From Verrucomicrobiota bacterium (GTDB lineage: Bacteria > Verrucomicrobiota > Verrucomicrobiia > Opitutales > Opitutaceae): a DNA stretch of 16,000 nt. The position numbers and the translations under genes are program-made. Every line of letters starts with the position of its first letter. Position 1 is the first letter of the stretch. Under the pieces are notes generated by a model. It did no database searches. It was not told the origin of the DNA and saw nothing but the letters and a program-made list of their open reading frames with translations. Positions 2,004 to 13,906 of the stretch are shown here, piece after piece. Location of the stretch: NCBI GenBank assembly GCA_003641745.1, contig QNAI01000066.1:1367-17366 (forward strand). Reading direction: 5' to 3'.

Positions 2004-3503
2004 TCAGCTCTCAGTCGTGAATCTGAAGGCATAGAGATCGGCATCCCTGAGGACAAATCGCAGTCGGAGCGGGCGGCCCGTCAGGGTGGAGACGTCCGAA
2101 CCGGTCTTCCAGACGACCGGTCGGTCGACCGAGTCGCCGAACGTGGGGTCGCAGTCGCCAAGGGCAAATCCCTCGATCGGACTGCCTGCTTCGTCCTGGA
2201 TTTCGACCCGCACGTCACCTGCGACGGAAGTCGCGAAATTCAGTCGGAGTTCGTTCCCCTCAAAGACAAGTGGCCGGGTCAGGCATTCCCCACCAGACGC
2301 AGGTGCGTTGAGTGACACGAAACCATCGAGGCGAAGCGTGTAGCGGCGCAGGGCACTTCCGGTCTCCATCCAGTAGTCCTCAACCGCATACAAAGAGAGT
2401 TCGTTGGGAGCATCGGTCCCCAGGCTTGAAGCCGTCTCGACCAGGAGCCAGGCCAGGTATTGGTGGCCATAGTTCCAGGTCCCGGAGCGTTCGGGACCTG
2501 GACGGAGGAATCCTTCCGGCCACTTGGTGAACGATACTCCATCGCGACTGGACATCAGAAGCGATTCGGACAGTGCCGTGCCGTAACGCTCCTGGGCCGA
2601 GGACCTGAATTCACGGAATTCCCGATCCGGAAGGGCCCGCATGGAACTCCCCCACGGACGTTCGAGGTAGCGCGCGGGAAACCCGATCAGGATATGGGGT
2701 GCCCGGTGATAGGGCTTGATCTGGTTGACATAGAGTTCCTCGGCCGGCGGGTTGCCGAGGTAGGTCAGGTCGGCCTGGTTGGACCAGTGAATCATGTCGG
2801 GAGAGGTGGCGGTGCGGATCGACCGGGGACCCTTTGGATCCCAAACGCCCTGCTCCACCTTCCCTTCGGGGAAGCATCGCCAATACGCGCGGTACTCGCC
2901 GCGTTCGCCGTCCCAGAACGCGAGATTCTGTGAGTCGAAGGCGCCGTCGGTAATAACCGGCGTGTCGGCCATCTCTGACCACTTGAATCCATCATTCGAT
3001 TCGATGGCAATCACTCCGTGCGCGCCCCGCGATCGGAGGAAACCCTTGTAGGGTATTTCCGCGGACGGATTCTCGTCCCGGAAAATCGCGGGATGGCCAG
3101 GGTCTCCTTCCGCTCGGGTCAGGCTGTTCCGATCCAGGACAATATTGTTCGCCTCGTTTCCATCGTAGGCGACCTGTCCAAGATCGGGCTTCACCCAGTG
3201 GATGCCGTCCTTGCTCTCGGCATAACAGGTAAATATGTCCGGGGTCTTTTCGGTGGCGATTTTTCCGGGTTTGAGGCGGATCTTCCACGCTTTATAGTAG
3301 AGTTTGTAGAGATCTCCGTCCCGGAACAGGCTGTGGTAGCCGCAGCCATTGCCTTCCCAGGGGGCGTCATGTCGCAGCACAATATCCCGGGGCTGGGGAT
3401 GATGCATGCGTCGGCTGGCGTGGCCGTCAATCCGGTCGATCAGGAAATCATCGATGAAGAGTTCACGTCGTGAGCCAATGTCAGTCGGTTCGGAATTCTG
3501 CAT
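2004..3503 (-). CDS. Putative beta-propeller glycoside hydrolase-like protein with C-terminal beta-sandwich (family not resolved)
   Basis: Uninterrupted 499-aa ORF. The N-terminal RELFIDDFLID motif and repeated W/G/D-rich blade-like segments (DGDLYKLYY, DGIHWVKP, DGFKWSE, MIHWSNQ) resemble GH32/43/130-like propeller proteins common in PVC bacteria. No canonical catalytic motif recognised and no obvious signal peptide. Confidence 0.5.
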   Translation of the reverse strand: MQNSEPTDIGSRRELFIDDFLIDRIDGHASRRMHHPQPRDIVLRHDAPWEGNGCGYHSLFRDGDLYKLYYKAWKIRLKPGKIATEKTPDIFTCYAESKDGIHWVKPDLGQVAYDGNEANNIVLDRNSLTRAEGDPGHPAIFRDENPSAEIPYKGFLRSRGAHGVIAIESNDGFKWSEMADTPVITDGAFDSQNLAFWDGERGEYRAYWRCFPEGKVEQGVWDPKGPRSIRTATSPDMIHWSNQADLTYLGNPPAEELYVNQIKPYHRAPHILIGFPARYLERPWGSSMRALPDREFREFRSSAQERYGTALSESLLMSSRDGVSFTKWPEGFLRPGPERSGTWNYGHQYLAWLLVETASSLGTDAPNELSLYAVEDYWMETGSALRRYTLRLDGFVSLNAPASGGECLTRPLVFEGNELRLNFATSVAGDVRVEIQDEAGSPIEGFALGDCDPTFGDSVDRPVVWKTGSDVSTLTGRPLRLRFVLRDADLYAFRFTTES

Positions 3504-3620
3504 AATTCGAGGGGTTGGAGGTTCGTGCGTGGTGACCCTTGTCTTCGGTCAGGAAATGCGCGAATGACCACATTTCGATTTCGTTCGAATAGACGGGAAT
3601 GCATCCACCCGGCAAAAGGC

Positions 3621-3758
3621 AGGATGCTGGGAATTTTAGACAGGATTAACAGGATTGACTGGATTTGCTTCTGCAGGGCTTGAAAAGACAGAGACGGTGA
3701 TAAGCCGCTCGTTTCTGATGATTCATAGCCATCTGCTGTTCCCAGCCAGGATCCTGTC
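3621..3758. repeat. Family-1 intergenic structured repeat, copy A (3' arm truncated)
   Basis: The 27-nt block 3638-3664 is 26/27 identical to 12381-12407, and ggatcctgt at 3749-3757 is identical to 12486-12494. Helix P1 pairs 3626-3633 gctgggaa with 3739-3746 ttcccagc. Helix P2 pairs 3689-3695 cagagac with 3711-3717 gtttctg. Arm pairing joins 3639-3646 gacaggat with 3751-3758 atcctgtc. Confidence 0.8.
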
Positions 3759-3793
3759 CATAAGAGACCTGAGGCATGGGGGCTCGGTTGAGT

Positions 3794-4498
3794 TCAGTCT
3801 GGATTCAGAAACAGACCTGCGCCTGCCTCATTGAGGTCTTCCAGCAGGTCCGAGGTTCCGTCGATCAGGACCCGCAGGTCACCACCACTCGGGATCGAGA
3901 AAGAGACCTGGTGGGGCAGCAATCTCATTTCGATCGATGTCCCGGGCGCCTTCAGGGTCAGCCATGATGCGTCCGCGGCATAGTCGAGAAGGGGTGCCAG
4001 TTTATCGGAATCTTCGATCCGGTCGATCGTTCCTTCGAGGTCGATGGTTTGAGTGAATTCGATCAACACCGAATCGCAATAGTGGCGGAATATCTCGATG
4101 AAGCACGCACGGGTTACGACCTCCCTCGAGGTTATGGCGGCCACTTCGGTTCCGATTCGATAGGACCTTGCGTCATCCGGATCCTGATCGATCCAGAGCG
4201 TCACCGTGAAGTCGGGTGTCTTGATGATGCCGGTTCCTTCTTCGCAGGAAAAAGAAAGTCCCTTCCGTTTGAGGTGAAACGCCGTCCGGATGTCCCGGTG
4301 GAGTTGCTCTGCGCGGTCTTCCAGATCGGGGCTTCCTGCTTTTCTGGTGAACGCCTCCGTCGCCTGGGAATGCCGATCGGGTTCGCGGTGCACGCCTTTG
4401 AGAAAGCCACGCAGTCGCCGTATGCGACCCACGTCCCAACCACGCAGGCGCGCCTGATGGAACGGACTTGAAGATTCGTCAGCTTTCTTCTCAGGCAT
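3794..4498 (-). CDS. Hypothetical protein (no recognisable family)
   Basis: 234-aa ORF in the same orientation as its neighbours. Arg-rich N-terminal third and acidic C-terminal two thirds; no signal peptide or TM segment seen and no motif I can name. Coding status is inferred from length and lack of a competing supported ORF. Confidence 0.6.
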   Translation of the reverse strand: MPEKKADESSSPFHQARLRGWDVGRIRRLRGFLKGVHREPDRHSQATEAFTRKAGSPDLEDRAEQLHRDIRTAFHLKRKGLSFSCEEGTGIIKTPDFTVTLWIDQDPDDARSYRIGTEVAAITSREVVTRACFIEIFRHYCDSVLIEFTQTIDLEGTIDRIEDSDKLAPLLDYAADASWLTLKAPGTSIEMRLLPHQVSFSIPSGGDLRVLIDGTSDLLEDLNEAGAGLFLNPD

Positions 4499-4585: not shown

Positions 4586-5995
4586 TCACCTTTCTGCCCC
4601 GACCAGTTCCAGGTAATCACACAGGATCTCGATGTGATGATTGAACAGGGCGGAACTGAGACGATCGCTGACTTCGTATTGACCATCCCATCGCTTGCCG
4701 GGTTCGTACACCTTGTATCTGTCGCCCTTGACAATCCACCGGCCGTGTTTGTCCAGCGAATCAATGACCGCCACGACTTCCGGTCGGATGGCGTTCAGTT
4801 TCTCGGCGATCTCCTCAGAGGTCATTTCAGCGATCGGACGATAGATATAGGGGTCAACACCGGTCTCCCGGATATGATCAAAACGCTTTTCCCCATTCCT
4901 GATCCTTTCACTGAGGTCGGATTCATAGCCATATCCCGTGCGGCGTTCCAAGCTGAGTTCGTCGGTTGAGTCCACCCGGAAACGCCCACGATCATAGTAG
5001 AGCGCCCGGCCGGTTCCTATTTCGATGAATCGTGCCCAGAGTCCGTTGGGTAACCGGCTCTCTTCCAGCCAATCGAGGGCATCGGGTATTGGTTCGAGGT
5101 AATCCTCGTTCCCGAATTGGGCGAAGAGATCCATCAATACCTGAACGTTCTGGATCGTGACCAACGGGCATACCGCAGGAGGTTCGAACGTACGGGCCCA
5201 AGCCGGTTGAAGAAAGTCATTGTATTGTTGCGCCCATCCGGGCTGAGGCGGTGGAAGCTGGGACAGGATGATAAACCACCCCGTTTTTCGGACCGATTCC
5301 AGGAATTCATCGCGGTCGTAGTGCCGGTGAGCTGCGAGCATAACCGACAGGCAATCCGCGATACCATGGTCATTGTAGGTGGCGAAGTCGTGGTAGTTTC
5401 GTTGTCTGGGATATTTGTGTGGCCAGCCGCCATGCTCCATCTGTGCATCGAGCATCATGCTGAGAGATCGCTCGACGGCCTTGTGGAGAACCGGATCATC
5501 GACCACCTGATCAAGGGTCATCAGGAAGCGAATGGCGCTCTGGGTCTGGTCATCATCAAAACTTACCTCGTCACCTCTTGGTTGATCGAAGTGGATCTTA
5601 TGATCCCATCCACCCAGATCGTTCTGACCGCGGATCAGGGCGGATGCCGCGTCGTTCGCCGCTTCAAGGAATAATGGGTCGGGGAGCACTTCGTACGCGT
5701 GCAGGAAACTCATTCCGACGCTCGGAGTGCCGGGAGGCTGCACCTCAATTGTCCGATCATCCATCGGCGGGCCTTCTCCCCACCTCGTCTGAAGATCGAG
5801 CGAATAGTAGTAACCGTAGCCACCTTCGATGGCGATCGAGTGAAAGAAATCGATGCCGCGTTCGAGTGCATCCTCCGCCCGTATGGCGAGTTCATGATCT
5901 GACACCGGATTTGCGGGTGCCCCGTAGGCAGAAATGGTCAGAACAACTGCCAGGGACAGCGCGAATCCGCAGGTGATTGGAGTATTTCTTAACAT
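4586..5995 (-). CDS. PL10-like pectate lyase (PelA/Pec_lyase family), secreted
   Basis: Track ORF is 4586..6085. I place the start at the ATG at 5995 (MLRNTPITCGFALSLAVVLTISAYGAPA), which gives a signal peptide. Repeated GGW/GGY motifs (GGYGYYYS, LGGWDHK, HGGWPHKYP) and NGLWARFIEIGTGRALYYDRG resemble the alpha/alpha-toroid PL10 family (WARFYE..RPIF..RDG). Confidence 0.7.
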   Translation of the reverse strand: MLRNTPITCGFALSLAVVLTISAYGAPANPVSDHELAIRAEDALERGIDFFHSIAIEGGYGYYYSLDLQTRWGEGPPMDDRTIEVQPPGTPSVGMSFLHAYEVLPDPLFLEAANDAASALIRGQNDLGGWDHKIHFDQPRGDEVSFDDDQTQSAIRFLMTLDQVVDDPVLHKAVERSLSMMLDAQMEHGGWPHKYPRQRNYHDFATYNDHGIADCLSVMLAAHRHYDRDEFLESVRKTGWFIILSQLPPPQPGWAQQYNDFLQPAWARTFEPPAVCPLVTIQNVQVLMDLFAQFGNEDYLEPIPDALDWLEESRLPNGLWARFIEIGTGRALYYDRGRFRVDSTDELSLERRTGYGYESDLSERIRNGEKRFDHIRETGVDPYIYRPIAEMTSEEIAEKLNAIRPEVVAVIDSLDKHGRWIVKGDRYKVYEPGKRWDGQYEVSDRLSSALFNHHIEILCDYLELVGAER

Positions 5996-6124
5996 AGGTT
6001 GGGAGATGAGTTTTACCACAGAGAGCACCGGGGGAACAAGGAGTTGATTGGGGCATAGGGACCAATGATCGTCCGACTCATGCATTCGCTGCCGATCTCA
6101 GATTCCCTTCGTGACCTTATGTTA

Positions 6125-6168
6125 CCTTCCGTGTGAAAGATTCTTCGGTATGGATTGAACACGGAAGG
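6125..6168. other. Perfect 10-bp hairpin in the PL10 upstream region
   Basis: ccttccgtgt (6125-6134) pairs with acacggaagg (6159-6168) around a 24-nt loop, followed by a G8 run at 6177-6184. Function unknown. Confidence 0.5.
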
Positions 6169-6208
6169 AGCGATGCGGGGGGGGAGGGACTCGGCTCTAG
6201 ATTCTGAA

Positions 6209-6389
6209 TGAACCACAGAGGACACAGAGGACACAGAGAATAAAAAGGAAGAGGCTCGGAATGAAAATTATGTTTGGAGAATTTTATATACTGAGTCTCG
6301 TCAGATGGAATAGCTGGTAAGTGAGGTTCCTGCGCGAGCGAATGGCCTGTTTCCTGAACCTCTGTGCTCTCTGTGTCCTCTGTGGTTCA
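6209..6389. repeat. Family-2 long inverted repeat built of tandem 9-mers, enclosing an AT-rich 119-nt insert
   Basis: 6209-6229 tgaaccacagaggacacagag is perfectly complementary to 6369-6389 (21 bp). After 2 mismatches, 6232-6238 pairs with 6360-6366. The arms are tandem 9-mers (ccacagagg acacagagg acacagaga). My hand count for 6241-6300 in the interior is 20/60 G+C. Confidence 0.85.
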
Positions 6390-6396
6390 AAAAACT

Positions 6397-10271: not shown

Positions 10272-10400
10272 CGGAGCTCCTGATAAGTTCTTTCGCTACG
10301 GGCACGGACGATCCCCCCTGCTGATGCAGGGCTGTCCGCCGGGAAGTCGCGCGGGGCATATTTGTTGACTCTCCAAAGTCTTCGCCCGATAAGAGGCCTC

Positions 10401-11396
10401 ATGATTTTTGAATCCAGAGCCTATGCACGTGCTGGTTTGCTGGGAAATCCGTCCGATGGGTATTTTGGCAAGACCATCTCGATTGTGGTCCGGAACTTCG
10501 GGGCCCATATTTCTCTATATGAATCCCCTGAACTGCATATAGAGCAACAGGCGGAAGATCAGAACATATTCAGAAATATATATCAGTTGGTGGAGTCTGT
10601 TGACCTGACCGGCTATTATGGTGGTGATCGATTGATAAAGGGCGCCATCAAGAAGTTCTGTGAGTTCTGTGATTCCCAATCGATTCGACTGCACGGAAAA
10701 AATTTCACCATAAGGTACCGATCGTCGATACCACGCCAGGTCGGCCTGGCCGGCTCAAGTGCCATCGTTACGGCCACCATCAAGGCTTTGATGGCGTTTT
10801 ATGAAGTGGAGATTGAGGATGAAATCCTGCCCAACCTTGTTCTTTCGGTGGAGACCGAAGAATTGGGCATCAATGCCGGCCTTCAAGACAGGGTCATCCA
10901 GGTTTATGAAGGTTGTGTGTTCATGGACTTTGAAAAGACCATCATGGAGTCGCAGGGTCATGGGGATTACGAACGCATTGACCCATCGCTTCTACCAAAC
11001 CTGTTCATTGCCTATAAGACAAATCTGGGGAAGGTATCCGGTGCTGTGTTCAGCGACGTGAAGGCCCGATTTCTGGAAGGAGACCCCCTTGTGGTCGATA
11101 CCCTGGCGGAAATAGCCGAGGTCGCGGCAAAGGGGAAAAAGGCCATCTTAAGTGGCGATCACGGTCAATTGGCCAAACTTGTTGATAGGAACTTTGACCT
11201 CAGGTGCAAAATATTTTCCATCAGTGAGAGCAATCGTGAGTTGGTAACCGTCGCACGGAAATGTGGAGCGTCGGCAAAATTCACCGGTTCGGGAGGATCC
11301 ATTATAGGAACCTATGAAAGTGATGAAATTTTGCGGAGTCTCATTATTAACATGAATGCCCTGAAGGCAAGGGTGATCAAACCATTCATAAACTAA
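10401..11396 (+). CDS. GHMP-family sugar-1-kinase, glucuronokinase-like
   Basis: Track ORF starts at TTG 10362. I prefer ATG 10401, preceded by aagagg at 10391-10396. The GHMP motif is IPRQVGLAGSSAIV. GLLGNPSDGYFGKTIS, GYYGG, LGINAGLQDRVIQVY, GHGDYERIDPSLLP, NFDLR and GASAKFTGSGG match motif-for-motif what I recall of plant glucuronokinase (GlcAK). Confidence 0.75.
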   Translation: MIFESRAYARAGLLGNPSDGYFGKTISIVVRNFGAHISLYESPELHIEQQAEDQNIFRNIYQLVESVDLTGYYGGDRLIKGAIKKFCEFCDSQSIRLHGKNFTIRYRSSIPRQVGLAGSSAIVTATIKALMAFYEVEIEDEILPNLVLSVETEELGINAGLQDRVIQVYEGCVFMDFEKTIMESQGHGDYERIDPSLLPNLFIAYKTNLGKVSGAVFSDVKARFLEGDPLVVDTLAEIAEVAAKGKKAILSGDHGQLAKLVDRNFDLRCKIFSISESNRELVTVARKCGASAKFTGSGGSIIGTYESDEILRSLIINMNALKARVIKPFIN

Positions 11397-11404
11397 AGGG
11401 CATT

Positions 11405-12283
11405 ATGATTAAGAAAGCAGTAATACCGGCAGCCGGACTTGGAACAAGATTTTTGCCTGCGACCAAGGCGCAGCCAAAAGAAATGTTACCCATCATTGAT
11501 ACGCCTACCATTCAATATGTGGTTCAGGAGGCGGTTGATTCGGGTATCGAGGACATTCTGATAATCAGTGGCAGGAACAAGCGGGCGATGGAGGATCATT
11601 TTGACCGGAATGTTGAATTGGAGGATCGGCTGGCCAAGGAGGAGAAGGACACGCTATTCAATGAGATTCGACATATTGCGGATATGGCAAATATCCATTA
11701 TGTCAGGCAGAAGGAGATCCTTGGATTGGGAGATGCCATATATTACGCGCGATTCCACACGGGGAATGAGCCGTTTGCGGTGTTGCTTGGTGATACGATC
11801 ATTAATTCGGTCATGCCGGTGACCCAGCAGCTGATTGATGTGTATGAACAGTATCAGGCGACAACGGTTGCGGTGGAGGTCGTGCCAAGAGACAAGGTGT
11901 CGAGATATGGGATTGTGGGCGGCGAGAAGTTGAGCGACCATATCATGGCGATCGACCAGTTCATCGAAAAACCGTCGGTTCAGGAGGCGCCGTCAAATCT
12001 GGCGATTGCCGGCAGGTATATACTGACCCCGGAGATTTACACCGCATTGGAGCAGACGCCGAAAGGCAAAAACAATGAACTCCAGCTCACTGATGCCCTG
12101 ATGAACCTTACCCATAAGGAAAAGGTGGTCTCTCATACTATTCAGGGCAAAAGATATGACATTGGCAATAAGTTGGATTACTTGAAGACAACCGTGGAAT
12201 TTGCCTTGCGCCGAAAGGAGTTCGCAAAACCGTTCTATGACTATCTGAAGAAGATCGTGGAGGAGAATGACAGGCCACTCTGA
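11405..12283 (+). CDS. galU: UTP--glucose-1-phosphate uridylyltransferase (GalU type)
   Basis: 292-aa ORF. The N-terminus KAVIPAAGLGTRFLPATKAQPKEMLPIIDTPTIQYVVQEA and the motifs RYGIV and EKP are canonical for GalU/GtaB. It starts 8 nt after the kinase stop. Confidence 0.9.
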   Translation: MIKKAVIPAAGLGTRFLPATKAQPKEMLPIIDTPTIQYVVQEAVDSGIEDILIISGRNKRAMEDHFDRNVELEDRLAKEEKDTLFNEIRHIADMANIHYVRQKEILGLGDAIYYARFHTGNEPFAVLLGDTIINSVMPVTQQLIDVYEQYQATTVAVEVVPRDKVSRYGIVGGEKLSDHIMAIDQFIEKPSVQEAPSNLAIAGRYILTPEIYTALEQTPKGKNNELQLTDALMNLTHKEKVVSHTIQGKRYDIGNKLDYLKTTVEFALRRKEFAKPFYDYLKKIVEENDRPL

Positions 12284-12364
12284 ATTATTCGAGACGGCCA
12301 ACGAGGCAAGGATATGGGTGCGTTGGGTTTCCCGGTTTTCTGCAAAACGCTTGAACAGACCCCA

Positions 12365-12512
12365 GTCTGAGAAGAAGTTCAGACAGGATTAACAGGATTG
12401 GCTGGATAGGTTTCTGAAGGCTCTGAAAGGACGGAGAAGGCGATAGGTCGTTTTTCTCTGATCATCATGATCTTCTTCTCAGACCGGATCCTGTGAATTC
12501 TGTTAATCCGTC
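12365..12512. repeat. Family-1 intergenic structured repeat, copy B (full-length arms)
   Basis: Helix P1 pairs 12365-12377 gtctgagaagaag with 12472-12484 cttcttctcagac (13 bp, perfect). Helix P2 pairs 12432-12440 with 12452-12460. The arm helix pairs 12382-12399 with 12496-12512 (17 pairs, one bulge, one G-U). An A7 run follows at 12513-12519. Confidence 0.85.
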
Positions 12513-12538
12513 AAAAAAAGTTTCGAAGGGTTAGTCTC

Positions 12539-13672
12539 CTAGAACGCCTCAACGAGTTCCACCATCTTCTCGTAGTTTCGCAACGCCAGGGCCGGCAGTT
12601 CCCGCCCATAGGGACAGGATGATGGCATCAGGACGAATCCCCGGCCGGTTCCTGATGTTCCTTCCTCGAGGGCGCGTTTGATTTTTTCCGCAAACCGGTC
12701 AGTGGGCAGGTTCTCGATGTCATTTGATTCGAGATTGCCGAAGAGGACCATGTCCCTGCCGTATCGTTCCCTTACATAGGCCAGTTCAACGTCGCCTTGG
12801 GGAGGCGGTTCGATGGGATCGAGCGCATCCGCGCCCAAGGCAGCGATATCATCCAGAATGGCCTTGAGATTTCCGTGTGAATGGATGCGGGCAAATCCGC
12901 CAAACCTCTGGATTGTCTCAACCATGGGCCTCACATACCGGCATACATACTCCCGGAACAGATATGGCGGCAGGAAGGGAGACGAGGCGTACTCCGGACC
13001 GAATATCCGCCAGAGACGACCGGGCAGTGCTTTGGCCACGGCCTCTGTCTTTGGCAGGAGGGTCGAAGCAAAGCGCTCCAGAAGTCTGTGAAAGAGGGCC
13101 TGTTCGGTCAGGGCGATCACCGTGTAGTCGGCCAGGTCAAACAATCCTGCCGCAAGGCAGAGCGGATCGGGTGTGTCGATCATCACTATTCCCGTGTCGC
13201 CCAAGGCGGTCTCCGCTTGAATGACCGCCTCAGTGGCCATCGCGCCCTTCGAATCGGGCTCGGGTATCTCCAGGAACGCTTTCAGGTCATCGACATTCTT
13301 GAGCAGCGGTTCGACGGTCCACACCGTGTCTATGCCGGGGTCGCGCCGGGTGAGTGAGGTCAGGGTACGGGTTCCGATCTGAATGCGCCTGCGGGTGAAA
13401 CGGTTCCCATCGCGCATATAGGTTTTGGCCTCCGAGATCGATTCAATCGGATCGGGTTGGATGCGGGCAAAGGAAACACCTCGCAGGACAATGCGATCGG
13501 TCTTTTCCCGGGCCAGATCAATCAACGGCCGCCAGGATGGATGGTTGAAGATGTTGAACGGATCACTGTCGTCAGGATCCTGATTCATACCGTTCAGTTC
13601 ATAGAATGAGACCGGAGGCCGATCTACCTGCTCGCCACGCAAGGTGGCCATGAGTCTTTCCCGTCGGTTCAT
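12539..13672 (-). CDS. Uroporphyrinogen decarboxylase (URO-D) family protein, probably a non-HemE paralogue
   Basis: 377-aa ORF. The N-terminus MNRRERLMATLRGEQVDRPPV is the typical URO-D/MtaA-family start and the length fits a TIM barrel. No heme-biosynthesis neighbours. Confidence 0.7.
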   Translation of the reverse strand: MNRRERLMATLRGEQVDRPPVSFYELNGMNQDPDDSDPFNIFNHPSWRPLIDLAREKTDRIVLRGVSFARIQPDPIESISEAKTYMRDGNRFTRRRIQIGTRTLTSLTRRDPGIDTVWTVEPLLKNVDDLKAFLEIPEPDSKGAMATEAVIQAETALGDTGIVMIDTPDPLCLAAGLFDLADYTVIALTEQALFHRLLERFASTLLPKTEAVAKALPGRLWRIFGPEYASSPFLPPYLFREYVCRYVRPMVETIQRFGGFARIHSHGNLKAILDDIAALGADALDPIEPPPQGDVELAYVRERYGRDMVLFGNLESNDIENLPTDRFAEKIKRALEEGTSGTGRGFVLMPSSCPYGRELPALALRNYEKMVELVEAF

Positions 13673-13848: not shown

Positions 13849-13906
13849 GTAGGAGAGGCTTAATGCCTCGATGGTCTGCGTGATCGAGGCATTAAGCCTC
13901 TCCTAC
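13849..13906. repeat. Perfect 24-bp palindrome (REPIN-like inverted doublet)
   Basis: gtaggagaggcttaatgcctcgat (13849-13872) and its exact reverse complement (13883-13906) are separated by 10 nt. Each arm starts with GTAG and contains its own mini-hairpin gaggc-ttaat-gcctc (13855-13869). Confidence 0.8.

Follow-up and report, generated by a model that had tools for sequence, protein, structure and literature searches.

Introduction

Short palindromic intergenic repeats are an established kind of element, and several described systems resemble the one reported here. Among them are the Correia (NEMIS) elements, MITEs that occur only in Neisseria and carry a TA target duplication and an IHF site. 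They are intergenic, ~100–160 nt in length, bounded by terminal inverted repeats, and often co-transcribed as long hairpins, with internal variation and decay between copies and presence/absence polymorphism among relatives, features in which the present repeat is like them. REP/BIME and ERIC sequences are comparable in being multi-copy, non-coding extragenic palindromes that lie mainly at gene 3′ ends or between cistrons. RAYT proteins are the REP transposases, and REPs are species-specific. One report describes REPs as 20–40 bp long with GTAG or CGTC heads (PMC3733652).

Other systems place a gene between the repeats. IVS-type cassettes hold a small selfish ORF within the loop that a long inverted-repeat stem closes; a GxxExxY gene takes the place of that ORF in the cassettes described below, and cargo-less stems coexist with these. 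Both the 23S rRNA IVS protein and the GxxExxY families are linked to rRNA intervening sequences. Homing-endonuclease cassettes are similar in combining a free-standing nuclease-fold gene, patchy and horizontally transferred, with recognition-like flanks and an “empty” version in the genome. The phylogeny of PDDEXK_3 has been reported as “multiple transfers, mixed clades” (PMC3424549). Two open problems meet at this point, namely how short palindromic repeats spread without a transposase and what role is played by the multi-copy, horizontally transferred GxxExxY (PDDEXK_3) proteins.

We analyzed a 16-kb stretch of Verrucomicrobiota DNA (the window, taken at its full length), in which a sequence-only reading had proposed two copies, A and B, of a ~140-nt element with a conserved core and covarying helices, interpreted as a selected RNA or single-stranded DNA fold. 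Our analysis indicates that A and B are probably diverged, cargo-less, MITE-like copies of a ~180-nt palindromic repeat that belongs to an apparently undescribed, transposase-less class.

Results

Every coordinate and sequence quoted for copies A and B proved correct on re-reading, including the 26/27 identity between 3638–3664 and 12381–12407 and the GGATCCTGT common to A (3749–3757) and B (12486–12494). The repeat itself is real, with a gapless alignment of 92 nt at 77% identity; the interval first assigned to it was too short, as alignment with further copies extends the A/B homology ~40 nt past each end (Table 1). The exact 18-mer ACAGGATTAACAGGATTG occurs twice in the 16-kb window, for which shuffling gives an expectation of 0.01 matches with ≤3 mismatches. 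Its 10-mer AACAGGATTA (3646–3655 and 12389–12398) also forms part of a universally conserved 16S rRNA segment at ~780–790 (AAACAGGATTAGATACCC), which is probably a coincidence.

The 27-nt core consists of three tandem nonamers (ACAGGATTA, ACAGGATTG, and RCTGGATNN) built on the unit ACAGGATTN. In copies B, C, and D an inverted nonamer array (…AATCCTGTNAATCCTGTC) forms the right arm, so the unit is an imperfect palindrome of ~180 nt, with the ends 5′-G ACAGGATT … AATCCTGT C-3′. Within copy B, 22–24 nt of the right arm at 12486–12509 (GGATCCTGTGAATTCTGTTAATCC) are an inverted copy of the core, which identifies GGATCCTGT as the inner end of that arm; the array forms an inverted repeat of 22 nt with 82% complementarity, and 18/27 positions are paired. 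The arrays are the best-conserved part of the repeat, A and B being identical at 26/27 positions there and 77% identical overall, and copy A is the most decayed of the copies. The outer helix of copy B is a 27-nt inverted repeat with 81% complementarity and a duplex energy of −30.5 kcal/mol. Since the arms of the outer helix (oL–oR) and the array hairpin (cL–cR) are interleaved in the order oL, cL, oR, cR, the two are alternative structures rather than nested ones.

Table 1. Positions and composition of the repeat copies and their parts. Coordinates are those of the window unless a contig is named.
Feature	Position	Strand	Composition or basis
Copy A, full unit	3599..3786	+	~180–190 nt; homology with B, C, and D; CM score 137.6 bits
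Segment without counterpart in L156, read as an insertion containing copy A	3522..3786		~265 nt
Copy A, left nonamer array	3640..3666	+	ACAGGATTA ACAGGATTG ACTGGATTT
Copy A, remnant of right (inverted) array	3749..3759	+	GGATCCTGTCC, other part of arm gone; alignment, core-arm pairing
Copy A, outer helix, 5′ arm	3613..3633	+	GGCAGGAT GCTGGGAA; MFE fold; duplex −24.1 kcal/mol
Copy A, outer helix, 3′ arm	3739..3759	+	TTCCCAGC, cagg bulge, ATCCTGTC; MFE fold
Copy A, inner hairpin	3689..3717	+	CAGAGACGGTG / CGC-CGTTTCTG, loop ATAAGC
Copy B, full unit	12338..12519	+	Four-copy homology; CM score 164.7 bits
Copy B, left nonamer array	12383..12409	+	ACAGGATTA ACAGGATTG GCTGGATAG
Copy B, right (inverted) array	12486..12512	+	GGATCCTGTGAATTCTGTTAATCCGTC, then A-run at 12513-12519
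Copy B, outer helix, 5′ arm	12355..12381	+	Includes GTCTGAGAAGAAG
Copy B, outer helix, 3′ arm	12468..12494	+	Includes CTTCTTCTCAGAC; crosses the array hairpin
Copy B, inner hairpin	12432..12460	+	CGGAGAAGGCG / TCGT-TTTTCTCTG
Copy C	L125 5683-5842	−	Metagenome scan
Copy D	L125 4806-4968	−	Metagenome scan
Copy A, helix pairing			Outer CTGGGAA / TTCCCAG, 7/7 pairs; inner 7/7
Copy B, helix pairing			Outer CTGAGAA / TTCTCAG, 7/7 pairs; inner 7/7
Copy C, helix pairing			Outer TTGAGTA / CTCTCAG, 5/7 pairs; inner 4/7
Copy D, helix pairing			Outer CTGAGAA / GTTCCAG, 5/7 pairs; inner 4/7

Copies C and D come from a metagenome scan anchored on the core and GGATCCTGT alone, which returned three loci. One (L123) is the same locus as copy A, another (L124) is a chance coding match, and the sole new locus is the 14.7-kb contig L125, where C and D lie in direct orientation ~870 nt apart. 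Both retain the whole right arm (GGATCCTGTAAATCCTGTTAATCCTGTC). The units A–D are short (~180 nt), non-coding, and multi-copy, and this subfamily comparison rests on n = 4 copies from two contigs. A covariance model built from them recovered its own four copies at 138–180 bits and no further copies in 718 kb, the other matches scoring ≤51 bits, lying on both strands, and covering only the arrays. C and D flank a 193-aa ORF (L125 5079–5660, −) without a Pfam or NCBIfam match.

The outer and inner helices quoted for A and B exist and appear in the single-sequence folds of the + strands (−56.6 kcal/mol, z = −4.2 for A; −48.8 kcal/mol, z = −2.0 for B). The minus strands fold more weakly, because several of the helix pairs are G-U; the interior of copy A reaches −17.0 kcal/mol on the + strand and −9.2 kcal/mol on the other. 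The outer helices had been described as unrelated in sequence. They are instead homologous and have CTG-R-GAA / TTC-Y-CAG in common; a single compensatory change (G-C to A-T) separates the copies, and the helix of B is longer. As had been claimed, the A/B differences within both 7-bp helices all preserve pairing, two double changes included. In the additional copies C and D, both helices are broken (Table 1), and the interior folds weaken from −17.0 (A) and −14.0 (B) to −8.6 (C) and −6.1 kcal/mol (D). Pairing between core and right arm runs the other way: it holds for 25/28 positions of copy C, 24/28 of D, and 18/27 of B, and only a vestige is left in A. RNAalifold applied to A–D on either strand kept the array hairpin and a tiny 4-bp flank hairpin and lost the outer and inner helices; covariation terms were unfavorable (+0.5 and +1.06) and consensus energies weak (−19.5 and −15.7 kcal/mol). 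The array hairpin is thus strong where the secondary helices are weak (C and D), and the reverse holds in A and B. This inverse pattern can be reconciled with a hairpin of some kind being maintained in a lineage-specific way, and not with a single conserved RNA architecture.

No Rfam family matched at the gathering threshold anywhere in the window, and permissive scans of A and B returned only noise (E ≥ 2), in agreement with the earlier statement that the element is no named RNA family. Consensus scans for intrinsic terminators and promoters around A and B were negative for both, with no terminator-like site; copy B has its A-run 3′ on the + strand and a T-run 5′ on the − strand. A small protein encoded on the minus strand was also considered. 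Its 29-aa peptides end in NPVNPV in B and C, with a frameshift in A and an in-frame stop in D. The differences between A and B fall at codon positions 1, 2, and 3 of this frame in 9, 4, and 6 cases (hand count), a non-coding pattern on which the frame was rejected as coding. An ATGATG follows a GAGGAG-like site in this frame, opposite to the orientation first assigned to the element, at 12408–12471 (−) in the window and 5713–5775 (+) in L125. The peptides of B and C are alike (MMIREKRPIAFSVLSEPSETYPANPVNPV and MMMKKGPIGFCVIPDPAEAYPVNPVNPV…) and were judged non-functional because neither A nor D keeps the frame open.

Minus-strand genes flank copy A on both sides (2004–3503 and 3794–4498). The relative L156 carries orthologues of both in synteny (232 aa, 66% identity; 499 aa, 80% identity), with 30 nt between them. 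The gap in the window is 290 nt, so that ~265 nt (roughly 3522–3786), containing copy A, is extra here. The copy A unit is inserted DNA that is absent from the orthologous site of L156, a presence/absence polymorphism observed for copy A between the window and this relative. The empty site could in principle also reflect a deletion in L156. No direct repeat could be assigned as a target-site duplication at the copy A/L156 boundaries, and paralogy of the two 499-aa genes was considered and rejected. Copy B sits between convergent genes that Pfam assigns as galU-like (11405–12283, +) and URO-D-like (12539–13672, −). On the galU side, the closest GalU loci are Bacteroidota contigs without the element and are uninformative as orthologous sites. 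The orientation of the repeat to its neighbors varies, being antisense to both genes at A, in a convergent gap at B, and sense at C and D; the contig of the window carries ordinary metabolic genes, and the 499-aa protein marks the organism as Opitutaceae-like Verrucomicrobiota. Neither L155 (21.5 kb, an Opitutaceae MAG) nor L156 (10.6 kb) contains ACAGGATT arrays, and the element is therefore patchy in the lineage, with two copies in the 16-kb window, two in L125, and none in the 32 kb of these two Opitutaceae-like contigs.

The arms of the repeat extend far beyond this lineage. The 18-mer core was found at no fewer than 120 loci of species-representative genomes, where ~17 are expected by chance. 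At least a dozen phyla are represented among the matches listed, which include Verrucomicrobiota, Kiritimatiellia, Planctomycetota (Pirellulales), Lentisphaerales, Acidobacteriota, Chloroflexota, Bacteroidota, Ignavibacteriota-type lineages, Nitrospiraceae, Gemmatimonadaceae, Auribacterota, Gamma- and Betaproteobacteria, Syntrophobacteraceae and other delta-type or Desulfobacterota-type lineages, and the archaeon Methanoperedens. The class consists mostly of intergenic hairpins, whose usual form is [T-rich] G (ACAGGATTN)2-4, loop, (NAATCCTGT)2-4 C [A-rich]. A G stands directly 5′ of the array in 125 of 136 instances, and 64 of the 136 have an inverted array ≤2 kb away, with a loop of ≤120 nt in 50 of those 64. 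In L102 and L115, for example, arrays also form long direct tandem runs that have no inverted partner. The flanks have G/C termini and are A/T-rich and partly complementary, and no consistent duplication was seen in them. Copies A, B, C, and D fit this class, each having at least two phased ACAGGATTN units after a G and an inverted AATCCTGT array downstream in an intergenic position. One class hairpin (GACAGGATTAACAGGATT … AATCCTGGAAATCCTGTTAATCCTGTC) was detected in a plasmid scan, at ~197.0–197.2 kb of the Spirosoma oryzicola RHs26 plasmid NZ_CP089539.1 (L159), a finished RefSeq replicon of a cultured isolate with no feature annotated there.

By crude ORF calls, the gene context of the class is convergent in 34 cases, divergent in 11, and co-directional in 67. 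Among 21 co-directional hairpins, the transcribed strand folds better in 6 and not in 15 (mean +2.1 kcal/mol), a lack of folding advantage that favors a palindrome acting at the DNA level. The 144 ORFs neighboring arrays are ordinary genes and include no transposase, whether RAYT/Y1 or of another kind. The arrays were also considered as ends of a transposon carrying its transposase, a possibility rejected on these 0/144 neighbor ORFs and on the 1.2-kb stretch between inverted arrays of L021, which holds an ordinary ORF. A phage origin was likewise rejected, as coding TGLTGL repeats in a few phages account for most of 26 viral matches, with only ~4 of the hairpin type. In these viral contigs (L126–L151) the 18-mer is mostly coding, read as TGLTGL in tail-fiber-like or collagen-like repeats, so exact-motif scans also catch unrelated coding sequence. 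Full-text literature searches on the motif, GxxExxY, the IVS protein, and Verrucomicrobia MITEs found no description of the nonamer arrays.

Identical arrays were found to enclose just one kind of gene, GxxExxY / PDDEXK_3, and this is no recognized transposase. At four loci (L002, L019, L157, and L158) it lies exactly between three nonamers and three inverted nonamers, and the assignment (TIGR04256 / PF13366; PD-(D/E)XK fold) is made at E = 1e-39 to 1e-42 for TIGR04256. The last left nonamer ends a few bases 5′ of the ATG, supplying AGGA, and the right array is read through as an NPVNPVNPV tail, the stop falling just past …CCTGTC; NPVNPV-type C-terminal tails are accordingly repeat arms that have been translated, which matters for the annotation of predicted proteins. 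Among the 120 best homologues of the L019 protein, NPVNPV is present in 84 and the looser N-x-V-N-x-V within the last 45 residues in 110; these homologues belong to a single subfamily, and the word index by which they were retrieved contains words from the tail. The arms are common to the widespread hairpin class and the GxxExxY cassettes. L157 holds both, with one cassette and four hairpins that lack cargo lying in successive intergenic gaps behind a common left flank (cgcgggaaggttttTAG). A sequence search found no solved structure for a GxxExxY protein.

Some details of these loci were recorded alongside. At L157 7280–12270 and L158 8774–8850, array hairpins fill successive intercistronic gaps, ending a few tens of bases 5′ of the next ribosome-binding site, and their loops hold nested hairpins of other words. 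At L157 8140–8780, a second GxxExxY gene lies between ~48-nt direct repeats (ggcgcaagcgtWagcgc.gcgcagtctgcgaaagtctgtggttaaa) without nonamer arrays, an arrangement that suggests other end types for this gene family.

Discussion

The reading of A and B as repeat copies draws on their palindromic anatomy, the empty site in L156, the patchy spread in the lineage, and the cross-phylum class with its hairpin form. It also draws on the gene context, the absence of a transposase, the GxxExxY bracketing, the reported transfer of PDDEXK_3, the Spirosoma isolate, and the covariance-model result. We infer that A and B are non-autonomous, MITE-like or REP-like members of the class. In the window, a candidate structured RNA is thereby removed and replaced by inserted repeat DNA, probably splitting an operon of the relative. 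The element would spread through its arrays, most plausibly by way of a trans-acting protein that recognizes them; the GxxExxY nuclease-like protein is the best candidate for this factor. The mode would be cleavage and copying, by homing or gene conversion, rather than classical transposition. Inserted copies would simply be co-transcribed and fold into long hairpins, whose stems may be processed or may stabilize mRNA, so that a host-level role is possible and not required. The outer and inner helices seen in A and B would then be secondary palindromes specific to the lineage, which gained dominance while the array hairpin decayed. Against this reading stand the pair-preserving changes between A and B and their stronger + strands, which are what constraint at the RNA level would produce.

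That constraint is the substance of the earlier interpretation, in which the 140-nt unit would be a structured RNA, either non-coding or cis-regulatory, or else single-stranded DNA with a functional fold, its helices selected and its core single-stranded. The favorable + strand folds of A and B, the preference for that strand through G-U pairs, and the retention of pairing at every A/B change in both 7-bp helices speak for it, and the lack of an Rfam match would make it a new family. We nevertheless regard it as improbable. The pairing does not survive in C and D, whose interiors fold weakly, and the four-copy consensus contains neither helix and earns no covariation bonus. The opposite strand folds better in copy C, the orientation to neighboring genes is inconsistent across A–D, and the transcribed strand holds no advantage in the 21 co-directional hairpins (6 vs 15). 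The claim that the fold is selected rather than a decaying repeat is weakened further by the absence of the element from the orthologous, syntenic site of L156, and by the finding that its core is what forms the inverted array at the ends of a widespread class of repeats and gene cassettes. Of the outcomes that the sequence-only reading had named as refuting it, the lack of supported covariation in further copies was observed; the core also turned out to end a repeat class, which is not a known repeat or IS end.

Two other functions could attach to the same DNA. The hairpin may have been exapted as an mRNA element, an intercistronic or 3′-end stem that sets the relative stability of the adjacent cistrons by stopping exonucleases or by undergoing RNase III cleavage. 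REP/BIME and Correia elements work in this way, and stems of 25–30 bp suffice for RNase III. The enrichment of the class at gene 3′ ends (34 convergent vs 11 divergent), the L157 hairpins just 5′ of ribosome-binding sites in successive intercistronic gaps, and the 30-nt spacing in L156 of the genes around copy A, which are probably co-transcribed there, all fit such a role. It is unlikely all the same, as sequence identity across phyla would be unneeded for a stem, the transcribed strand is not favored, and tolerance of insertions predicts the 3′-end bias equally well; A and B are also unlike intrinsic terminators, with a T-run 5′ and an A-run 3′ of the stem on both strands. Alternatively, the arrays could be double-stranded DNA binding sites, either cooperative 9-bp-phased operators or nucleoid sites, their symmetry reflecting a dimeric binder. 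Strict 9-bp phasing, the conservation of the arrays above the rest of the repeat, and the direct tandem runs without an inverted partner argue for sites of this kind. We consider them a poor prospect, comparable to the structured RNA, since the arrays take no consistent place relative to promoters, divergent and promoter-rich gaps are under-represented, and no regulator gene is associated with them. Moreover, we know of no single DNA-binding protein that spans all these phyla and the archaeon.

The repeat-copy reading still leaves A and B distinct from each described system. As in a MITE, terminal inverted repeats are present in the class of A–D, as array and inverted array (decayed in A), whereas an autonomous partner with the same ends and a transposase was not found here. 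Unlike Correia elements, the repeat has arms made of phased nonamer arrays that recur across phyla, and no target-site duplication could be assigned to it; Correia repeat ends are presumably unrelated to the nonamer arms, save for a chance-sized GGATTAAC. The class termini read GACAGGATT, unlike those of REPs, and identity of an 18-mer across phyla is not a REP property. In contrast to IVS cassettes, the window copies enclose no ORF, and they are situated between protein-coding genes instead of within rRNA. The likeness to homing-endonuclease cassettes is qualified in that the GxxExxY proteins are putative nucleases and any homing by them would be hypothetical. The combination of identical phased nonamer arms across phyla, no transposase, and GxxExxY bracketing appears to be undescribed in the literature and Rfam releases searched.

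A broader proposal can be put forward tentatively, one we hold to be possible though with the balance against it. Inverted ACAGGATTN arrays would be the ends of an undescribed, transposase-less selfish family whose autonomous form carries a GxxExxY PD-(D/E)XK gene in the hairpin loop and which has spread horizontally through a dozen-plus phyla and Methanoperedens; hairpins of the A/B type would be its non-autonomous copies or landing pads. If true, the large and enigmatic GxxExxY family would gain a function, namely to drive copying through cleavage specific to a sequence or structure. An identical 18-mer in hairpins of many phyla, together with exact GxxExxY bracketing, offers a testable handle on both open problems introduced above.

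Additional Observations

The GHMP-kinase and galU pair (10300–12300) has a G+C content of 0.49–0.51, compared with 0.55–0.61 elsewhere. Its closest homologues (86–93%) are on Bacteroidota-type contigs, and the 499-aa gene is Opitutaceae-like. By composition and homology, the block may have been horizontally acquired, ending at copy B.

The window contains further palindromes. A second “word hairpin”, made up of another repeated word, occupies an intergenic position at 6204–6390 (TGAACCACAGAGGACACAGAGGACACAGAG … CTCTGTGCTCTCTGTGTCCTCTGTGGTTCA), with arms that are 93% complementary and a loop of 121 nt, and a smaller one lies at ~6113–6170 (CCTTCCGTGT / ACACGGAAGG). The same CACAGAG-type words adjoin ACAGGATT arrays at many genome loci (e.g., L007, L018, L029, L041, L106, and L119). 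A perfect 24-bp palindrome without an Rfam match (GTAGGAGAGGCTTAATGCCTCGAT / ATCGAGGCATTAAGCCTCTCCTAC, loop 10 nt) is present at 13849–13906, in the divergent region upstream of the URO-D-like gene.
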